36,747 bases of DNA from Eubacteriales bacterium (GCA_045656965.1 JAZOSE010000097.1:1-36747); one strand, 5' to 3'. Positions 9,228 through 17,069 are shown, counted from the stretch's first letter. Program-made: numbers and translations. The notes: generated from the sequence alone by a model not told the origin.

Positions 9228-10195
9228 TATCTTGCCCCCATTTGTCTGAGCACTAAGGTGCGAAAAAAGCTCTTCCCCGAATGCACGATACGCATCGCGT
9301 GCTGCTTAATTTCCACGGCGGCGGCTTCTCTTGAGGCTCTTGCGGCATCGTCAAAGGCATCGCGAATGCGGAGAATTTCTCTATAAAAGGGAGATTTTTC
9401 GGCGTATTCCCAAAAATATTCACCGTAAAGCACGTCGTTATACTGCCAAGGCTTTTTATAAAGGGCGTAGTGCATAATGCCGATGTACTCACCCTCGGTC
9501 TTTTCAAGTGGCTCCTTGTTCCAAGCTGAGGACAGCATTTTGATCTTCCCACTGCAAAGGAAGTTAAGATATGCCTGGTCGGGGTCCACGGTATCAAAAT
9601 TGTAGGTTTTGATCAGGTGAACGAACGTCTCCTCAATACGTGCGCGTCGGAAGGCATCAAGATCGATAAGAAGCACGCCGGCGTTGATATAATCGGCAGG
9701 GTCAACGCCAACGGCTTCCTTAGCATAGCGGCGAAATTCGGGCGTGGTGTAGATAAAGTTTTCTCGCGCGCCACCGAGGATGTTTCCCTCAAGATCGGTG
9801 TCGTAGAGCTTTGCCACGTCGTCAAGCACCACAAGATCGCAATCAAGATAGATCACCTTGCCATACTCGGGGAAAAGCGAGGCTATAAAGAGGCGATAGT
9901 AGGTAACAACGGAAAAGTGATAAATATTTTTGAAGTGAGATTTGATCTTCTCCACCTTTTCGCTGATGTCAAGAAACTCAACCGTGACGAAGTCCGTTTC
10001 GTTCGCCTTGACAAGACGGACGTTTTCTTCCTTCAAGCCCGTATTTAAAACGATGATGCGATAGCGGTTTTCACTTGAGGCGTGAAGAACGAGCGAGCGC
10101 ACAGCAACGTCAAGAAAGGGGATGTAATTATCGTCGGTAGAAAAGAAAATAGGAATCTCTTTTCTTGTTTTTGCGTTTTTCATAGGCACGAGCAT
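9227..10195 (-). CDS. Glycosyltransferase family 8
   Basis: IPIFFSTDDNY, TYYRLFI, YLDCD, YINAGVLLID, DQAYLN, HY...KPW; RBS AAAGGA supports ATG 10195. Confidence 0.9.
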   Translation of the reverse strand: MLVPMKNAKTRKEIPIFFSTDDNYIPFLDVAVRSLVLHASSENRYRIIVLNTGLKEENVRLVKANETDFVTVEFLDISEKVEKIKSHFKNIYHFSVVTYYRLFIASLFPEYGKVIYLDCDLVVLDDVAKLYDTDLEGNILGGARENFIYTTPEFRRYAKEAVGVDPADYINAGVLLIDLDAFRRARIEETFVHLIKTYNFDTVDPDQAYLNFLCSGKIKMLSSAWNKEPLEKTEGEYIGIMHYALYKKPWQYNDVLYGEYFWEYAEKSPFYREILRIRDAFDDAARASREAAAVEIKQHAMRIVHSGKSFFRTLVLRQMGAR

Positions 10196-10227
10196 TGCGT
10201 TTTCCTTTCGGGTGTTTTCTCGCACCC

Positions 10228-10256
10228 ATTGTAACTCCGAAGGAAGAAAAAGGCAA
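10228..10256 (-). promoter_or_regulatory. sigmaA promoter of GT8 operon
   Basis: minus strand TTGCCT-17 bp-TACAAT. Confidence 0.65.
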
Positions 10257-10374
10257 CCTACCGTGCGCGCCCGTTGGTAGCGCGTGCGAAAGCGGGCGGT
10301 AGAGCTTTTCAAAAATGCACTCTACCGACAGTAGAGTCTGTAACAAAAGCACAAAAAAGCAAATAAATGTTTGC

Positions 10375-10413
10375 AAAAGGAAAGCCGGCCGAGCTTTTAA
10401 GCTGGGTCGGCTT
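10375..10413 (-). terminator. Terminator after M24 peptidase
   Basis: imperfect stem aagccgacccagctt-aa-aagctcggccggctt followed by tcctttt on minus strand. Confidence 0.6.
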
Positions 10414-10425
10414 GGTTGTTTTCCT

Positions 10426-11598
10426 TTAAAGAAGAATGATTTTATCCTGCCTTGGCGTGTAGACCATCGGCTTGCCGTTTTCGATATAAACGTTGATCTC
10501 CTCGCGAAGTCCGAAGGTAGGAAGGTAGACGGCAGGCTCGAGGGAGAAGGCGGTACCCTCCATAACGGCGCGCGTGTCGTGCGTTTCAAAGTTGTCGATA
10601 TTGGCACCGACACCGTGATCGCTCTCACCAAGAGAGATGCTGTGACCTGTGCGGTGAAGGATATACTCGCCATAGCCGTTTTGGGTCAAAATACCGTTAC
10701 AAATGTCATCAACCTCATAGCCGCACACCGTGCGCTTGGGGAGATTTTCTTCAAGGAAGGTAAGTGCGGCGGAGATCGCCTCGTGTACGACGCGGAAGGC
10801 GCGCTCTATATCCTCGGGAACCTTATTTCCTACGTATCCCATCCAAGTAACGTCGGCAAAGACGGCTTCGGGAAGGTCAAACTTTGCCCAAAGGTCGATA
10901 AGGACACTGTCGCCGGGAAGAATGCGGGAATGCACCTCGCGCGTGGGCTCGTAGTGAGGGCTGTTGCCGTTTTTGCCTGCAGCGACGATGGGGGCGCCTT
11001 CCGTGACCATTCCCTCCTCGGCGAAGCGGCGGCAAATATACTGCTGCACCTCATATTCGTCGGAGTAGCCCTTTTCGGTAACGTCCTTTGAGATCATCGC
11101 GAAGGCTTCGTCCTTGATCTTATCAATAAGAAGCGCCGCTTTTTTATGATATTCGAGTGACTCACCGTCAAAGGTAGCCGTGAGGGCTTGGAAAAGATCG
11201 GCAGAGGAGATGACGTTTTTAACGAAGCGCTTGACCGAGCAGACCGTGCCATAGTCGGCATACGAGGCGCGGGGGAGAAGCCCGTTTTCGCTGATCTCCA
11301 TCATAACGGTGTTATAGGGAGAAAGGAGCGCTTTTAAGTATTCGTCAAGCTCCCGCCAGGTTTTATAGGTATAGACGGTGTACTCGCCCTTTTCGTCCGA
11401 CTTTTTGATGCCGGGGGCGTCGATGACGTGGCAAACGATCGCCGAGACGTCGCCCTCGTCGATGATCACGAAGCATTTTCTCGTCGAGAAGGATGAGCCG
11501 AGCAGTGCGCGATACGCGGGGTTTCCCGATGCAAAGTCGTAGATGACCCAAGCCTCCGCTTCGCTTTTTTTAAGGTAGTCCTTGATTTTCTTTAACAT
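10426..11598 (-). CDS. M24 family (Xaa-Pro aminopeptidase/prolidase-like) metallopeptidase
   Basis: PHYEP, metal ligands IDLW, ADVTW, HRTGH, LEP, REE all present. Confidence 0.88.
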   Translation of the reverse strand: MLKKIKDYLKKSEAEAWVIYDFASGNPAYRALLGSSFSTRKCFVIIDEGDVSAIVCHVIDAPGIKKSDEKGEYTVYTYKTWRELDEYLKALLSPYNTVMMEISENGLLPRASYADYGTVCSVKRFVKNVISSADLFQALTATFDGESLEYHKKAALLIDKIKDEAFAMISKDVTEKGYSDEYEVQQYICRRFAEEGMVTEGAPIVAAGKNGNSPHYEPTREVHSRILPGDSVLIDLWAKFDLPEAVFADVTWMGYVGNKVPEDIERAFRVVHEAISAALTFLEENLPKRTVCGYEVDDICNGILTQNGYGEYILHRTGHSISLGESDHGVGANIDNFETHDTRAVMEGTAFSLEPAVYLPTFGLREEINVYIENGKPMVYTPRQDKIILL

Positions 11599-11613
11599 AG
11601 CGGTTCCCTTTCC

Positions 11614-14148
11614 TTAATCCACTAATTTGGCAACGATCTTGCCCGTTTGTCTTTGTACGTCCATCATATCCTTGCGGTCGATCTTCAAAAGACGGATAAC
11701 AGAGGAGAATACCGACATTTCCTCAAAGAAGGTTTTGGTGATCTCCTCAGAAAGCACGTCGGAGAGGTTCTTTTCCTCAATCAGCTCCGTGTAGAAGGTG
11801 AAGTCCTTAACACACGCCGCCATACCGTTGACGTACTTGGTCGAGAGCGAGTATTTAAACGCCTCGCGAAGAGATTTCAGCCCTGTCGAAAAGCTTTCGG
11901 GTCTGTCCTCCAAAACGCTGCTTAACACCTTGCCCTTGACGGAGAGGCGAAGCGACCAGCATTTCGCAATGTCGTCCGCGGTGTTTTTGAAGAGGGTGAA
12001 GGCGTGTGTGGCATTGCGCCTGATCTCACGGATGGTGGGCATATTTTTCTGCCAATCGGTTTGACCTAGCCTTCTTTGTTCGTCGAGCATCGATTCGTAG
12101 CAGTCGCTCTTATGAAGATAGGCGTAGGCGATGTAACGGTCTGCCGCACTGGTTTTAAAGAGGGCAAGCGCCGTATCCAAATGCTTCAAGCACTCCTTTA
12201 AGGCGTCGAAGCGGTCACCGTCGTTTAAAACGGAGAGGCGGTTGACCGACGAGGCGAGGTTAAGATATACGCATCCGAGAAGCTCGTGGTCGCAGGGGTA
12301 AAGCCTTCCGACGGAGAGCGCCAGCTCGCAATCGTTCTTCCAGCGCGTGTAGTGTTCCATACGCTCGCTTTGGTCAAGCGACATATCACCGCAATGCTCC
12401 CAAACGACGCACCGCTCGCGGTAAAGAAGCAAAAGCTCGGACTTGAGGGGATTTTCCTCTACCGAAGGTGTTAGCGCAAGAATGTCGCCGATTACGCCCT
12501 CAAACTCCGCGAGCATTCTTTCGGCGGCGTTTTCCTCGCCGCCCATCGCGTCGAAGTTGCCGCAGAAGAACATTTCCTTATGATAGGAGCAAAGAAGAGA
12601 GCGGAGCTTTAGGCGCACGCTCGTGATGTACTCACTTCCAACCATTCCCTCAATCTCTTCGAAGATGCGCATTTTAACTGCTTCCTCTGCATCGAGAATG
12701 AAGATGTTGTGCAAGTAAATTTCACCGAGAATACGCATCAAATACTCATATTTGGCGTACACACCCTCGTTTTTCTCCTCAAGCGCATATTCGTGTATCC
12801 TCTTTATGGCGCCGACTAGCATTTCGGTGTTATGCTTATTGTAGTATTCCTTGATCTGATAGGCAATCTCGCCGTAGCGCGAGGCAAAAAGCTTTTTGGT
12901 GACCTCCTCGCAGCTTCCCTCTCCGTTCTTGATGCCTGTGTAATACTGCCAAAGCATGGTTTCGGAAAGAAGCAGAGCCGCGCGCTTTTGCTCCCAAAGC
13001 TTTTTTTCGGTGGCGGTGGCATCGTACTCATCCTCAAGGGCTTCCGCCATACAGAAATCAATCTCGTCCAAAAGCTCCTCGCTGCCCGCACTGTACGGTT
13101 CCTCAAAGCTATGCAGTGCGTGAAGAAGGAACAAAGAAAAGTCGGTGTTTTCTACCGAGGACTCCTCCTCGCACCAGTCGCCGTCAAGATCCTCTAAAAC
13201 GTCATAGGGAATTTTTCCGTACTCGTTATAGCTATCTACGGGAAGCTCTACGGCGCGCTCACCCACCGAGACGCTGACGTTTTTCTCGTACAGGTCGGTG
13301 CCCTCGTTCATACGTACGGTTTTATTGCGGAAAACGATCTGGAAATTGGCAACCGAGGGCACGGTGAGAATTTCCTTGCCCATCAAGAGAACGGCAAGGT
13401 CGGAATTGTGGTCGATAAGAAGCACCGAAGCGTCCTCGCCAAGATCCTTGTTTTTTAGATACTCCGCAACACATTGTGGGTTGTGGGTAAAGAGAAAGAC
13501 GAAGGAGCCCAAAAGCGAAACGTCACTCTTTAAAATTTCATACGCCGCCGTTGCCTCGTAGGCTACCACGTCGTCGCGGATCTTTCTGTTGAGGCTTTCC
13601 TTTCCCAACACATAGCGGTCAAGCTTTTGCTCAAAGCGGACGTTCAAGGGACGAAGGCATACAAGTCTTTCAAGGGTGCGGTTCGGGTACTCGAAGGAGA
13701 TAGGACGGCTCGCGTCGTCGCCCTTGTCGGCGATCATGCGGTAAAGCATCTCAAAGCCGCCCTCGCCCATTGCGATATCCTTGGTTGCATAAAGAGAGTT
13801 GAAGGAAATAAGGTCGTCAACGGTGACGTTGCCAAAGACGTAGGCGTTGATGATGGCGCCCGGCTTTTTGCCAAGCTTACGCATACCGTCGAACTGCTTA
13901 AGTTCGTCGGCGATCCATTTGGAAAGCTTTGTTTTATCGCAGGCAACGAGGATAAAATGCTTGGCGTTGATCAGCGCCGTGTTGATGGCATCGTAAAAAT
14001 CGTCGCACTTTTCTTCCTTGCAGAGAAAGCATTTGAGCTTTTTGCCCTCGTGATGCTCGAAATATTCCTTGAGCTTTACCGCCATCGGATAAGAGCTTCC
14101 CTCTCCTACGGTATTACCGCCGTGATAGGATATAAAAACGTCCCACAT
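11614..14148 (-). CDS. TIR-domain protein with long helical/TPR-like C-terminal region
   Basis: N-term WDVFISY, INTALINAKHFILVA, WIADEL (Glu82 at the catalytic position); C-term helical repeats such as LGCVYLNLA, IAYAYLHKSDCY. Confidence 0.8.
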   Translation of the reverse strand: MWDVFISYHGGNTVGEGSSYPMAVKLKEYFEHHEGKKLKCFLCKEEKCDDFYDAINTALINAKHFILVACDKTKLSKWIADELKQFDGMRKLGKKPGAIINAYVFGNVTVDDLISFNSLYATKDIAMGEGGFEMLYRMIADKGDDASRPISFEYPNRTLERLVCLRPLNVRFEQKLDRYVLGKESLNRKIRDDVVAYEATAAYEILKSDVSLLGSFVFLFTHNPQCVAEYLKNKDLGEDASVLLIDHNSDLAVLLMGKEILTVPSVANFQIVFRNKTVRMNEGTDLYEKNVSVSVGERAVELPVDSYNEYGKIPYDVLEDLDGDWCEEESSVENTDFSLFLLHALHSFEEPYSAGSEELLDEIDFCMAEALEDEYDATATEKKLWEQKRAALLLSETMLWQYYTGIKNGEGSCEEVTKKLFASRYGEIAYQIKEYYNKHNTEMLVGAIKRIHEYALEEKNEGVYAKYEYLMRILGEIYLHNIFILDAEEAVKMRIFEEIEGMVGSEYITSVRLKLRSLLCSYHKEMFFCGNFDAMGGEENAAERMLAEFEGVIGDILALTPSVEENPLKSELLLLYRERCVVWEHCGDMSLDQSERMEHYTRWKNDCELALSVGRLYPCDHELLGCVYLNLASSVNRLSVLNDGDRFDALKECLKHLDTALALFKTSAADRYIAYAYLHKSDCYESMLDEQRRLGQTDWQKNMPTIREIRRNATHAFTLFKNTADDIAKCWSLRLSVKGKVLSSVLEDRPESFSTGLKSLREAFKYSLSTKYVNGMAACVKDFTFYTELIEEKNLSDVLSEEITKTFFEEMSVFSSVIRLLKIDRKDMMDVQRQTGKIVAKLVD

Positions 14149-14180
14149 AGCCTTCTCCTTTTAGATTACTTTTCTTTATC

Positions 14181-14209
14181 ATTATATATTCTTTTCACAC
14201 GCTTGTCAA
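14181..14209 (-). promoter_or_regulatory. Perfect-consensus sigmaA promoter of TIR gene
   Basis: minus strand TTGACA-17 bp-TATAAT; RBS AAGGAG before ATG 14148. Confidence 0.85.
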
Positions 14210-14339
14210 TGGTGATGCTTACTTTTCCAAGCTTTTATAAATTTTAATATTACACGGCTTGACCTCAATAGTAAATTGCGACATTCTGAGATCATTTATG
14301 TCAGTTGTTGCAACAAAAAGAGGGCTTTTTTCCTCTCTC

Positions 14340-14368
14340 TTGACAAAAGCCTAAAAAACGTGTATAAT
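14340..14368 (+). promoter_or_regulatory. Perfect-consensus sigmaA promoter
   Basis: TTGACA-17 bp-TATAAT. Confidence 0.85.
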
Positions 14369-14426
14369 GAAAATAGAAGGGCGGCCGCTTCGGCTCGCGC
14401 GAACAAACGAATGAGAGGTATCTTTT

Positions 14427-14669
14427 ATGACGTTTTCCGAAGGATTTAAAAAGGCTGTATATATAACCGTAGGCGCTGTGGCAACGGGCATTGAATCGCT
14501 CGGCACGCTTGCGGATTCTCTTGCGAAAAAGGGCTCTGCCGCCGTTAAAAAGGGCAAGAAGATGTATCAAGAGGCACGCGAAGAGAAAAAAGCGCGCGAG
14601 GACAAGGAAGAGCCCGCCGTGGTGGTTGAAGAGGACAACGGCGAGAACGCTCCCGTTGAGGGAAAATGA
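14427..14669 (+). CDS. Small phasin-like protein
   Basis: FKKAVYITVGAVATGIESLGTLADSLAKKG resembles PhaF/PhaI-type phasin N-terminus; RBS GAGG, own promoter and terminator. Confidence 0.55.
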   Translation: MTFSEGFKKAVYITVGAVATGIESLGTLADSLAKKGSAAVKKGKKMYQEAREEKKAREDKEEPAVVVEEDNGENAPVEGK

Positions 14670-14670
14670 C

Positions 14671-14712
14671 AAAAAAGATGGGGTATCGCACAAGCGTGCG
14701 ATACCCTTTTTG
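14671..14712. terminator. Bidirectional terminator
   Basis: gggtatcgcac-aagc-gtgcgataccc flanked by A and T tracts. Confidence 0.85.
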
Positions 14713-14714
14713 CT

Positions 14715-15578
14715 TTAATGCGAATGCTTGCCGTCGCTCGTGCAGCTCTGACCGAACGCGCCGACGGGAAATGCCATCGTGCGGAAGAGGCAGCAAGGGT
14801 TTTCCTTGCTCTCTGCAGGACGGCACTCCTTGTCGGGCACCGAGTATTCGGTGGCACCGCTGATCAGGTACTGTGCGGGACGCTCCAGACGAATGACCGA
14901 GAAAATACCGATACTGATAAGGAAGCGGTTAGTTCCGTCCTCGCCCGAAAGCGTCAATTCTCCGTCAAAAAGGTCGGCGATGACCTCGGGAATGCTCTCG
15001 CTGACGTCGCAGGTGTTACACTGACAATCGCAGCAGGAGCAGCCACCGGTCGTGCCTCCGGTCGTGTCGCAGCAAAGAACGCGCGTGGAAAGGACGATGG
15101 GCGCGGCGGTCTCTACGACTGCAATGGGTGTACCCGCAACGCCCTCCGTGGTGCATTCGGTGCAGCAAAAGCCGTCCGTACCCGCGGAGCGGAATACCGT
15201 GGTACCCCCTTCGCCGCCGTAAAGAACGGCGCTTTTTTGCAGGACTAAAAGAGAGTAAAATTCGCTTGTGGCGCCTGCGCCTACGCAGGCCTCGTGTCTC
15301 AAGCGGATGTAAAACCGAATGGAGATCTGGTAAAATCCGCAATTGAAGGGCACCTCATCCACGCTGATGGCGGTACCGACGATCCTCGCCTCTACGGTAC
15401 GAACCGTTGCCGTACGATTGATCAGGTCACGGCCGGCAGGCGTAAGATAAGCTCTGACGTCCTCGTAACAGTCTCTGTCGCGGCAGGAGTCCAGCACACG
15501 CATCGTGTCGATCGCTACGGCCTCTCTGCCGCAGGTCGATGCCGTTCTCTCGGAACAGCTGCATCTGTTTTCTGCCAT
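14715..15578 (-). CDS. Cys-rich conserved clostridial hypothetical, putative spore coat/exosporium protein
   Basis: EAVAIDTMRVLDSCRDRDC, many CC/CxC clusters, GIFSVIRLERP, PDKEC; upstream CATAATAT -10. Confidence 0.6.
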   Translation of the reverse strand: MAENRCSCSERTASTCGREAVAIDTMRVLDSCRDRDCYEDVRAYLTPAGRDLINRTATVRTVEARIVGTAISVDEVPFNCGFYQISIRFYIRLRHEACVGAGATSEFYSLLVLQKSAVLYGGEGGTTVFRSAGTDGFCCTECTTEGVAGTPIAVVETAAPIVLSTRVLCCDTTGGTTGGCSCCDCQCNTCDVSESIPEVIADLFDGELTLSGEDGTNRFLISIGIFSVIRLERPAQYLISGATEYSVPDKECRPAESKENPCCLFRTMAFPVGAFGQSCTSDGKHSH

Positions 15579-16387: not shown

Positions 16388-17069
16388 ATGAAGAAGATCT
16401 ATGAGGGCAAAACCAAGGACGTTTACAGCCTGGAAAACGGCAACGTTCTCTTGAAGTTTAAGGACGACTGCACCGGTAAAGACGGTGTGTTTGATCCCGG
16501 CGAGAACACCGTTGGCTTAAAGATCGAGGGCATTGGCCGCGAAAACCTCAAAACCTCTATTTACTATTTTGAGCTTTTAAAGAAGGCAGGCATCAAGACC
16601 CACTACGTGAGCGCAAATATTGAGGAGGCAACCATGGAGGTTCTTCCCGGTAAGGTGTTCGGTCACGGTCTTGAGGTTATTTGCCGTCTTGTTGCTACGG
16701 GTAGCTTTATCCGTCTACGGCGAGTATATCGCAGACGGTACCGTGCTTGAGGGCGGTTACGTTGAGTGCACCTTCAAGAACGATGCAAAGGGCGACCCGC
16801 TCGTTACCGGCGAGGGCCTTGCAGCTTTGGGTGTTATGTCTCCCGCTATGTTTGAAAGCATGAAGGAGCAGACCCTTAAGATCACCAAAATCGTTGCGGA
16901 CGACCTCAAAAGCATCGGTCTTGACCTTTGGGATATCAAGTTTGAGTTCGGCTACAATGGCGACGAGGTTATCCTCATCGACGAGATCGCCTCGGGCAAC
17001 ATGCGCGTTTACAAGGGCGATAAGATCGTTGATCCCATCGAGCTTACCAAGCTTATCCTCAACAGATAA
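16388..17069 (+). pseudogene. purC: SAICAR synthetase, frameshifted near 16715 (real lesion or sequencing error)
   Basis: [23 protein letters not shown] in first frame; [28 protein letters not shown] in second; expected IRRYG reads atc cgt c tac ggc. Confidence 0.85.

Follow-up and report, generated by a model that had tools for sequence, protein, structure and literature searches.

A two-gene cassette of gut bacteria pairing a TIR-domain solenoid protein with a dedicated M24 peptidase: a candidate peptide-gated NADase system

Organization of the locus

The window, i.e., the whole analyzed stretch of 36,747 nucleotides from a Eubacteriales bacterium, carries a cassette of two minus-strand genes lying 15 nt apart, with a consensus promoter ahead of them and terminator hairpins behind. 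Its features, in the order of transcription, are:

14181..14209, minus strand: promoter TTGACA-17-TATAAT, with 12/12 consensus positions, also read directly
14149..14180, minus strand: 5' leader with ribosome-binding site AAAGGAGAAGG (sequence read)
11614..14148, minus strand: gene 1, an ORF of 844 aa
13708..14148, minus strand: TIR domain of gene 1, residues 1–147, with invariant S76, W78, and E82 (Foldseek, VIA, TIR_2)
13147..13707, minus strand: predicted middle domain of gene 1, residues 148–334, mixed alpha/beta, then beta-rich (structural model)
11617..13146, minus strand: predicted TPR-like alpha-solenoid of gene 1, residues 335–844 (Foldseek and VIA on the model)
11599..11613, minus strand: intergenic spacer of 15 nt, with RBS-like GGAAAGGGA (sequence read)
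10426..11598, minus strand: gene 2, an ORF of 390 aa, M24B prolidase-type metallopeptidase (PF00557, alignment with 5xev_A)
10319..10415, minus strand: terminator region, two hairpins with a U-rich tract after each (scan and folding)

This layout agrees with the initial annotation, which had reported a perfect TTGACA-17-TATAAT promoter, an 844-aa gene, a 15-bp gap containing a purine-rich RBS, an M24 gene, and a terminator. The ribosome-binding site AAAGGAGAAGG sits 3' of the promoter, immediately ahead of the gene 1 ATG at 14148; the spacer between the TAA of gene 1 and the ATG of gene 2 is purine-rich and reads GGAAAGGGAACCGCT. In relatives, the corresponding spacers are 15, 21, and 15 nt long, and in locus L010 the two genes overlap by 4 nt. 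The 131-nt stretch downstream of the M24 stop codon, with the two hairpins and their U-rich tracts, folds with a dG of -37.4 kcal/mol (z -2.73; equaled by 1 of 200 shuffles). The total number of promoter-like sites (at least 9/12) within positions 9500–15000 is unremarkable, since 6 are seen vs. 4.4 +/- 2.0 in shuffles; only two sites in the scan reach 12/12, standing back to back in one intergenic region, where the second (14340–14368, plus strand) serves a divergent 80-aa ORF. Contigs assembled from RNA libraries (two bovine gut runs, one study) map on gene 1, a weak hint at expression without known phage challenge, with DNA carry-over possible.

Domains of the two proteins

The TIR signature initially noted at the N-terminus of gene 1 holds throughout the family, DVFISY and S76-x-W78-x-x-x-E82 being invariant in 16/16 members. 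Pfam TIR_2 matches the window protein alone weakly (E 0.0057; 17.6 bits vs. the gathering cut-off of 28); it is found in all 16 family members at E <= 0.1 (best 5e-8), and two relatives, P0016 with 33.9 bits and P0154 with 32.6 bits, exceed the cut-off. A Foldseek search with the predicted TIR model yields the SARM1 TIR domain (6o0u_A; E 1.1e-4, TMt 0.66), the best nine matches all being SARM1 or AbTir TIR domains (prob 1.0, TMt 0.57–0.67); VIA yields MyD88 (Z 14.2) and SARM1 (Z 14.1, rmsd 2.3 over 123 residues). The match of the predicted structure to SARM1 and MyD88, along with a Glu at the catalytic position, confirms, at the level of the model, the TIR fold on which the initial reading depended. 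In a profile alignment Glu82 falls on SARM1 residue 642, the catalytic E642 of that protein. Nucleoside 2-deoxyribosyltransferases are nearly as close to the TIR model (Z 13.0 vs. 14.2), so NAD+ as the probable substrate is deduced from the sequence motifs only; these suggest that gene 1 may have NADase activity.

The middle domain is modeled with pLDDT mostly 74–95, with dips to 50–58 near residues 141–150 and 281–290. It is the fastest-evolving part of gene 1 (mean pairwise identity 30% vs. 66% in the TIR domain), and the sensor parts in general diverge far faster (30–40% identity) than the TIR domain (66%) or the M24 peptidase (62%).

Residues 335–844 are modeled as all-helical, and their structural matches are TPR proteins; within them, residues 571–690 form a core that is strongly conserved. 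Foldseek yields APC5 (5l9u_O, E 3.7e-5), as well as LGN, OGT, and IFIT5; VIA yields LGN (Z 20.5), APPBP2 (20.0), RapI (19.0), the phi105 Rap with peptide (18.9), NprR–NprX (18.3), PlcR–PapR (16.3), and AimR (16.1), all above the Z of ~13 that VIA itself names as common for helical repeats. Five RRNPP-type receptors superpose on the region of residues about 380–840 (Z 16.1–19.0, 224–334 aligned residues). Pfam TPR or RRNPP models match 0/16 gene 1 members at E <= 0.1; hence, of the TPR-like repeats described initially, the predicted helical solenoid with its likeness to TPR structures stands, and a Pfam TPR match does not accompany it. The modeled solenoid appears to be shaped like peptide-binding TPR receptors, a likeness that is structural only; TPR solenoids bind many non-peptide partners too. 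The likeness suggests that peptides may connect the two genes, and the solenoid may act as a peptide sensor. A small propeptide gene conserved among nearby ORFs of at least 60 aa was not found; in the window, the region downstream of gene 1 is occupied by the M24 gene and the terminator, and the 80-aa ORF (14427–14669) has no counterpart in L001, L002, L005, L010, and 7 further loci.

Gene 2 matches PF00557, the pita-bread catalytic domain (E 3.8e-29; 102.4 bits vs. the cut-off of 23), and the five metal ligands claimed for it initially, D235, D249, H319, E354, and E367, are invariant in 32/32 sequences. Its residues 5–386 align collinearly with residues 8–396 of the Xaa-Pro dipeptidase 5xev_A (E 5.6e-61), including the metal-ligand motifs. 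NCBIfam scores are 45.5 bits vs. the cut-off of 630 for NF040821 (PepQ) and 44.8 vs. 393 for NF007310. Judging by these profile matches, gene 2 is a member of the M24B family and none of the named PepQ/YpdF-type enzymes. The M24B family cuts Xaa-Pro bonds at N-termini, and prolidase-type enzymes normally take dipeptides or free N-termini. With 4852 proteins at E <= 1e-20, the wider M24 family is a large one; its members seldom carry a name in the sources, and where they do, it is Xaa-Pro peptidase. In all four genomes examined, the partner M24 type is present once, adjoining gene 1; the sole other M24-type match in these four is a distant one in the window's own genome (30% identity over part of the sequence, E 3.9e-6).

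Conservation of the pairing and its distribution

The M24 gene directly follows gene 1 in 5/5 independent loci, that is, the window, L001 (equal to L009, hence one locus in this count), L002, L005, and L010. The flanks of these loci are unrelated, except for dnaK/dnaJ near both L001 and L002, and the pairing persists even where gene 1 is only 31% identical. By a proxy rather than direct observation, an apparently co-sourced M24 match accompanies 10/15 full-length gene 1 relatives and 2/8 of the more distant ones. The 12 known partner M24s all belong to one 41-row clade (SH-aLRT 95), nested in a 49-row group that a branch of 0.79 separates from the 71-row generic group; at 12 positions, including E366 beside a metal ligand, the M24s of the partner clade are fixed for other residues than those of the generic group. 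In trees of gene 1 and M24 built for 15 pairs, four clades recur in both, and the pairwise identities of the two proteins correlate (r 0.87; 55 non-independent comparisons of 11 pairs). The pairing is conserved, the trees of the two genes agree, and the partner peptidases group in a clade of their own. For P0028, an M24 of 87% identity located on a contig of 55.5 kb, the gene 1 relatives found include none of like closeness, so at least one close M24 may lack this partner.

The cassette is a rare, self-contained, horizontally scattered two-gene module of gut bacteria, seen in Christensenellaceae, one Bacilli MAG, and one Treponema MAG. It is found in 0/300 other genomes sampled from the family (including 0/5 of the window's genus), in 0/400 genomes of the phylum sample, and in 0/30 genomes of the family of L002's genome; it is absent from 400 other genomes sampled from the order, where one 31%-identical M24 without a partner gene occurs. 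The plasmids, phages, and viral contigs searched gave no cassette matches, and in GC content the cassette does not differ from its flanks. Three of the five loci have only housekeeping genes as neighbors; the window is among them, as stated initially when its neighborhood was said not to be a defense island. The other two adjoin defense-type genes, with ThsB-like and CAP12-type TIR genes next door in L010 and PDC-S01 at 1.2–4 kb in L002. One SIR2 protein, which is of the pAgo-associated/PDC-S65 type, also has the solenoid core (114 residues at 32% identity, library E 1e-6).

Comparison with known systems and possible function

In PADLOC-DB v2.0.0, gene 1 yields only ThsB noise (E 0.013 and 0.018, residues 55–93) and gene 2 has no match; the ThsB_TIR model matches 4/16 gene 1 members at E <= 0.1. 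No paper describing a TIR + M24 pairing was found in the literature. Both sources agree with the initial statement that no described defense system was known to pair TIR with M24: TIR with a dedicated M24 is absent from the described defense or signaling systems found.

Thoeris consists of a ThsB TIR protein, which is small, and a ThsA-type effector (SLOG-, Macro-, or caspase-type). The cassette likewise is a small patchy operon around a bacterial TIR with a catalytic-position Glu, and shows weak ThsB-model similarity; its partner gene, however, encodes an M24 peptidase in place of a SLOG-, Macro-, or caspase-type effector, and its TIR protein has 844 aa with a large sensor region of its own. 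A ThsA-type effector gene (SIR2-SLOG, Macro-TM, or similar) is present neither as gene 2 nor in the window flanks. SARM1 gives the TIR domain its best match in sequence and in structure and also has helical repeats on the same polypeptide, where they autoinhibit TIR and read a small ligand. In gene 1, the domains come in the opposite order, with TIR at the N-terminus, the SAM domain is missing, the repeats are TPR-like rather than ARM, and the protein is bacterial with an obligate peptidase partner. The RRNPP receptors (Rap, NprR, PlcR, AimR), which belong to Firmicutes and their phages, share the superposable solenoid (Z 16.1–19.0) and Firmicutes hosts, but the output part of gene 1 is the TIR and middle domains, not an HTH or Rap phosphatase bundle, and neither a sequence-level match nor a conserved adjacent propeptide gene is seen.

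BcTir/Tpr of Bacillus cereus is an anti-phage operon of two genes. One encodes an N-terminal NAD+-cleaving domain and, fused to it at the C-terminus, a TPR domain tuning the products; the partner of this NADase–TPR protein is a separate small TIR protein, and the partners listed are TIR, YspA, patatin, LSDAT, calcineurin, and caspase, M24 not being among them (10.1101/2023.05.26.542521). The cassette is similar as a two-gene operon with a predicted NADase-type domain and a C-terminal TPR-like region, and differs in that gene 1 pairs with M24 and not with a separate small TIR protein. Gene 2 in turn aligns end to end with the 5xev prolidase subfamily (E 5.6e-61) and shares its metal-ligand motifs, but forms a separate clade, adjoins gene 1, and has the 12 differently fixed positions. 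The nearest TIR domains (46–53% identity over about 150 residues) belong to TIR–HD_3 fusions of about 970 aa (L003, L004, L006, L007, L008) from the same gut Clostridia; the rest of these proteins is unrelated to gene 1, with the HD_3 phosphohydrolase fused and no separate M24 gene nearby. The comparison with Avs drawn initially proved loose, as Pfam finds no NTPase family, and thus no Avs-type STAND NTPase, in the window protein or the 16 members, and no Walker A motif (GxxxxGK[ST]) is visible in residues 148–334 of gene 1.

Several explanations may account for the pairing. The housekeeping neighborhood of the window and the commonness of M24 peptidases would suit incidental linkage, i.e., a housekeeping prolidase downstream of an unrelated TIR gene, a worry raised in the initial annotation along with the question of whether homologs are linked to M24 elsewhere. 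They are, and the data contradict this explanation, which we consider highly improbable: it is not borne out because the pairing holds in 5/5 loci, whose flanks are unrelated, and still at 31% gene 1 identity, and the two genes co-diverge with congruent trees. Moreover, the partner M24 is not a housekeeping gene of the lineage, since its type is missing from the sampled family (0/300) and phylum (0/400) genomes and nothing comparable is seen in 400 order genomes. Improbable to a lesser degree is a toxin–antidote or guard pair, in which a latent TIR NADase would be kept off by solenoid-bound M24, acting as an antidote or as a guarded host-like enzyme, until phage interference releases the toxin. 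Tight operon coupling (with the 4-nt overlap in L010), strict co-divergence, the dedication of an M24 clade to pairing, and the single copy of the partner type in each of four genomes would all fit; a mere binding partner could lose its metal ligands, yet these are invariant in 32/32 sequences.

Two further alternatives are unlikely, although not to that extent. One, close to the initial reading, is a Thoeris-like pair, with gene 1 sensing infection, TIR making an NAD+-derived small molecule, and M24 being either the downstream effector switched on by it or an enzyme that resets the system by degrading an amino-acid–ADPR conjugate. The two-gene TIR operon, the weak ThsB matches (E 0.013; 4/16 members at E <= 0.1), the stronger conservation of M24 than of the sensor (62% vs. 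45% identity), usual for effectors, and the 12 clade-specific positions, E366 included, are consistent with it. However, M24 is collinear with a stand-alone prolidase and has none of the domains by which TIR products are known to be read (SLOG, Macro, SAVED, CARF); a Xaa-Pro exopeptidase hardly suggests itself as an effector that kills cells or blocks phages, and the large sensor region of gene 1 differs from small ThsB proteins. Two of the roles proposed initially for M24, a Thoeris-type effector or turnover of amino-acid–ADPR conjugates, are unsupported; M24 is collinear with 5xev over its full length and carries no added ligand-sensing domain. The other, held to be similarly doubtful, is a non-immune RRNPP-like receptor of imported or endogenous peptides (nutrient or cell–cell signals), whose output would be a change in NAD+, e.g., for dormancy, the prolidase clearing the peptide. 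The resemblance of the solenoid to Rap, NprR, PlcR, and AimR, the housekeeping flanks at 3/5 loci, the native GC of the cassette, the large M24 family with its named Xaa-Pro peptidases, and, as a weak hint subject to DNA carry-over, the bovine gut RNA contigs on gene 1 argue for it; the very patchy distribution (0/5 even in the genus), the fast-evolving sensor domains, the TIR module common to HD fusions, the solenoid core common to a defense-type SIR2 protein, the clustering of TIR genes around the pair in L010, and the lack of a visible propeptide gene argue against.

Tentatively, we favor a TIR NADase that is gated by peptides and has a peptidase of its own, most likely a conflict system of the anti-phage, abortive-infection type, as quite possible. 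The solenoid and middle domain would hold the TIR domain inactive until a short peptide or protein terminus is bound or lost in the solenoid; TIR domains would then assemble and cleave NAD+, leading to its depletion or to an ADP-ribose-derived signal. The M24 peptidase would make or remove the peptide cue and so, whichever direction its effect on gene 1 takes, set the trigger threshold. An immune role of the cassette is plausible. Counted against the favored reading as a whole were the housekeeping flanks in 3/5 loci, the native GC, the lack of plasmid, phage, viral-contig, and significant PADLOC matches, the structure-only receptor likeness, the propeptide gene not seen, the usual action of prolidase-type enzymes on dipeptides or free N-termini, P0028, and the closeness to deoxyribosyltransferases. 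The conflict-like traits counted for it were the patchy spread, the fast divergence of the sensor, the TIR module in HD_3 fusions, the SIR2 protein with the solenoid core, and the defense-type neighbors at L010 and L002.

Layout and conservation of the TIR–M24 pair

Each of the operon elements described by the initial annotation (both ORFs, promoter, ribosome-binding site, spacer, and terminator) is present in the window at the coordinates given there. The pair and its surroundings comprise the following features:

14209–14181, minus strand: promoter TTGACA-17-TATAAT upstream of gene 1, 12/12 consensus positions
Upstream of gene 1: ribosome-binding site AAAGGAGAAGG
11614–14148, minus strand: gene 1 ORF, 844 aa
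Between gene 1 and gene 2: intergenic spacer of 15 nt, GGAAAGGGAACCGCT
10426–11598, minus strand: gene 2 (M24 peptidase) ORF, 390 aa, directly 3' of gene 1
14427–14669, plus strand: divergent ORF, 80 aa, reaching a strong bidirectional terminator at 14680–14707

Downstream of the pair there are two hairpins with U-rich tails (dG of the stretch −37.4 kcal/mol, z −2.73). The two perfect promoters of the region stand back to back within one intergenic region; the second TTGACA-17-TATAAT, in the 14340–14707 region on the plus strand, diverges from the cassette promoter and serves the 80-aa ORF, which matches nothing in Pfam or PADLOC and is without counterpart in the other loci searched. Promoter-like sites overall are not above chance in the region (6 vs. 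4.4 ± 2.0). Two runs of a single study contribute five read-sized RNA contigs on gene 1, four of them at 95% identity or more and one, partial, at 90–95%; none of the RNA-library contigs falls on the M24 gene, so neither co-transcription nor its absence is shown.

The TIR-plus-M24 module is real, conserved, and undescribed. The family of gene 1 is very small, with 15 full-length relatives (31–49% identity) among 5.8 billion clustered proteins, and an exhaustive phmmer search of residues 150–844 against 1.84 billion representatives yields only 17 matches. Five full-length loci beyond the window, two of which (L001 and L009) are the same DNA, came up in the scanned species genomes and metagenome contigs; the five independent loci are hence the window, L001 (Borkfalkia MAG), L002 (Bacilli MAG), L005 (Christensenella MAG), and L010 (a metagenome contig, 31% identity to the window gene 1). 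The M24 gene directly follows gene 1 in 5/5 of these, which argues against the incidental linkage feared in the initial annotation, an explanation that we now consider highly improbable. The spacers are 15, 15, 21, and 15 nt, with a 4-nt overlap in L010, and M24 identity to that of the window is 50–67%. Flanking genes are unrelated among the loci, apart from dnaK and dnaJ, seen some kb from the pair and in differing orientation in L001 and L002.

Sharing of the longest-contig size with an M24 match, used as a proxy for pairing, is seen for 10 of the 15 relatives of gene 1; the other five are on contigs of 3.4–19 kb. Of eight more distant representatives, two have a proxy M24 match, and six have none among the 120 M24 matches listed. 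In the tree of the 120 best M24 matches, all known or proxy-inferred partners (12/12) fall into one 41-row clade (SH-aLRT 95), itself inside a 49-row group that a 0.79 branch splits from the 71-row group of generic enzymes. The tree of the 15 gene 1 proteins and that of the 15 M24s paired with them, obtained by quick searches and having long branches, agree in their four clades and in their outliers. Pairwise identities of the two proteins are correlated (r 0.87 for 55 non-independent comparisons of 11 pairs), gene 1 changing faster than M24 (mean identity 45% vs. 62%). Contrary to this pattern, however, the M24 protein P0028, 87% identical, is encoded on a 55.5-kb contig, and no correspondingly close relative of gene 1 was found in the clustered-protein search.

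Domains of the two proteins

The AlphaFold2 model of gene 1, based on a 16-sequence alignment (mean pLDDT 85.4, pTM 0.73), consists of three parts; the N-terminal 340 residues were also modeled separately (pLDDT 84.4).

Residues 1–147: TIR domain
Residues 148–334: middle domain, predicted to be mixed alpha/beta, then beta-rich
Residues 335–844: solenoid, predicted to be all-helical

Pfam TIR_2 is sub-threshold in the window protein (17.6 bits, cut-off 28), matches 16/16 family members at E ≤ 0.1 (best 5e-8), and exceeds the cut-off in two relatives. For the 340-residue model, Foldseek retrieves the TIR domains of SARM1 and AbTir (E 1.1e-4, prob 1.0, TMt about 0.65), and VIA-align retrieves MyD88 (Z 14.2) and SARM1 (Z 14.1, rmsd 2.3 over 123 residues, 21% identity); nucleoside 2-deoxyribosyltransferases are close behind (Z 13.0), hence the fold alone leaves the substrate unfixed. 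Against PDB sequences, the whole-family profile gives no match at E ≤ 1; the TIR-only profile has SARM1 first with a marginal E of 0.016, and its alignment puts the invariant Glu82 on SARM1 residue 642, the catalytic glutamate of that enzyme. The earlier assignment of an N-terminal TIR signature with Glu82 is thus supported both by the matches to SARM1 and MyD88 and by residues S76, W78, and E82, unchanged in 16/16 family members.

For the fold of the middle domain, the ESM Atlas yields nothing usable, the Foldseek and VIA lists of the 340-residue model are taken up by TIR-domain matches, and the BFVD viral library contains no match at E ≤ 0.001. The solenoid resembles TPR proteins in Foldseek (APC5, E 3.7e-5; LGN, OGT, IFIT5). 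The exhaustive VIA search gives LGN (Z 20.5), the degron receptor APPBP2 (20.0), RapI (19.0), phage phi105 Rap with its peptide (18.9), NprR–NprX (18.3), pLS20 Rap (17.5), RapH (16.9), PlcR–PapR (16.3), and AimR (16.1), all above the Z of about 13 that, according to the tool, is common among helical repeats. Since Pfam TPR models match 0/16 family members, this likeness is structural only; in the ESM Atlas, TPR_12 leads alone for residues 150–844 at 0.81, under the trust level of the tool. On average, two family members are 66% identical in the TIR domain, 30% in the middle domain, 40% in the first half of the solenoid, and 52% across its core and end.

Gene 2 matches Peptidase_M24 (E 3.8e-29), and its alignment with PDB 5xev, a structure deposited as Xaa-Pro dipeptidase, runs the full length (E 5.6e-61, residues 5–386 on 8–396). 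All five metal ligands noticed initially (D235, D249, H319, E354, and E367) are unchanged in 32/32 close relatives. The protein has no extra domain and is far under the NCBIfam equivalog cut-offs of PepQ and PRK09795.

Defense associations and possible function

What stands of the initial interpretation of the locus as a candidate immune or signaling system is a real, conserved TIR–M24 module; its immune role is unproven. We rate the module as belonging to TIR-based conflict or signaling systems. Counted in favor of defense are a distribution that is patchy and crosses lineages, sensor parts that evolve fast, and the occurrence of the same TIR module (46–53% identity) in proteins of about 970 aa ending in HD_3. 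Hydrolase partners are swapped around one TIR module, which is either fused with HD_3 or paired with M24. These fusions, and the TIR and candidate defense genes close to two of the pairs, are as follows:

L003, 9887–12934: TIR-HD_3 fusion
L004, 738–3629: TIR-HD_3 fusion
L006, 9980–12901: TIR-HD_3 fusion
L007, 9956–12946: TIR-HD_3 fusion
L008, 9989–12892: TIR-HD_3 fusion
L010, 4803–6813, minus strand: 453-aa CAP12/Pycsar-type TIR and 200-aa ThsB-like TIR, directly after the pair
L002, 16281–17624, minus strand: PDC-S01 candidate defense gene (AAA_14 + DUF4143, PADLOC E 1.1e-156), 1.2–4 kb from the pair, its start about 2.5 kb downstream

The fusions carry the TIR domain at the N-terminus and HD_3, a YfbR-like phosphohydrolase, at the C-terminus, separated by some 650 unrelated residues; they have no significant PADLOC match and form a natural comparison for the TIR–M24 module. 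The fusion gene of L007 has a second TIR_2 gene (E 1.6e-22) next to it on the opposite strand. The genes listed for L010 and L002 also count for defense; L010, holding the most divergent TIR–M24 pair, has three TIR genes inside 6 kb. Another such point is P0160, a 748-aa metagenome protein whose SIR2 domain matches the pAgo-associated SIR2 and PDC-S65 models. It has the conserved solenoid core, corresponding to residues 574–683 of the TIR protein (32% identity over 114 residues, library E 1e-6), and is an orphan with two weak relatives. On the other side, the neighbors in the window, L001, and L005 are housekeeping genes only, with generic PADLOC matches (RecD2, UvrD, ABC ATPases), in line with the initial view that the neighborhood of the pair is no defense island; and no PADLOC model (PADLOC-DB 2023) recognizes either gene.

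The reading that we tentatively put forward, and consider possible, is that the solenoid and the middle domain would gate the TIR domain, that the gate would be a peptide or protein terminus, that the dedicated M24 exopeptidase would make or remove this ligand, and that activation would make the TIR domains assemble and cleave NAD+, with conflict as the most likely setting. Its structural and comparative steps are demonstrated; the enzymatic and biological ones we infer from established knowledge of TIR NADases, M24B peptidases, and TPR peptide receptors. A Thoeris-like signal–effector pair seems unlikely, and due to the absence of a ThsA-type effector the cassette is not Thoeris itself. Equally doubtful is a non-immune peptide-sensing regulator. 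A module outside immunity would give a rare example of a bacterial TIR enzyme serving physiology; an immune one would add a peptide-processing step to TIR defense. A toxin–antidote or guard pair is less probable than either. As for the peptide-gated reading, its extension to a TIR NADase with a dedicated prolidase making or clearing the peptide, representing a new class of anti-phage or cell–cell conflict systems of gut Firmicutes, is speculative and on the whole unlikely; if true, this would be the first receptor of the Rap/NprR/PlcR/AimR structural type with NAD+ cleavage as its output, rather than control of transcription or a phosphatase, and the system might read phage or host peptide signals.

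Bacterial TIR systems are ancestral or analogous to the TIR immunity of plants and animals. To our knowledge, each new type of TIR partner has so far revealed new signaling chemistry, and there is no description of a TIR protein with an M24-family exopeptidase for its obligate partner, or of a TIR NADase regulated by a peptide-receptor type of TPR solenoid. In the openly searchable literature, we found no paper on a TIR–M24/prolidase pairing or its equivalent, in agreement with the initial annotation, and none on an RRNPP receptor together with a TIR domain. Gene 1 is not an Avs/STAND protein, as it has no NTPase, and not an RRNPP receptor by membership, due to the different output domain and the lack of a sequence match. 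In its proposed way of working it is somewhat similar to SARM1, where a helical-repeat domain controls TIR, and to BcTir/Tpr, an NADase fused to a TPR domain, whose partner-gene list contains no M24 (bioRxiv 10.1101/2023.05.26.542521).

Distribution and genomic surroundings

The window genome, a 1.43-Mb MAG (83% complete), has one copy each of gene 1 and M24. The window-type M24 was not found in 300 other sampled genomes of the same family, including five of the same genus, in the 400 genomes of the phylum sample, or in a further 30 genomes from the family to which the L002 genome belongs; 400 other genomes of the same order contain one match only (31% identity), with no large ORF upstream. 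One relative of gene 1 comes from a Treponema MAG. Cassette DNA is seen in bovine gut metagenomes, in five runs of two studies with at least 0.29 of sampled words (runs with under 0.2 left out).

Mobile-element origin was considered and rejected: tblastn against plasmids and phages gives no match, the viral-contig scan gives none, and there is no GC anomaly, the GC content of the cassette being that of its flanks. No empty insertion site is demonstrable, the same-genus genomes sharing only a Cys-rich neighbor gene with no synteny around it. This gene (14715–15578, minus strand) encodes a 287-aa protein without a Pfam family, kept at 46–52% identity in 5/5 same-genus genomes, each time in a different neighborhood. 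Further along, at 16388–17069 (plus strand), SAICAR synthetase (purC) is present as two overlapping ORFs, 16388–16750 and 16620–17069, matching PF01259 at profile positions 1–98 and 102–201, respectively; the split is a frameshift, either real or a MAG assembly error.
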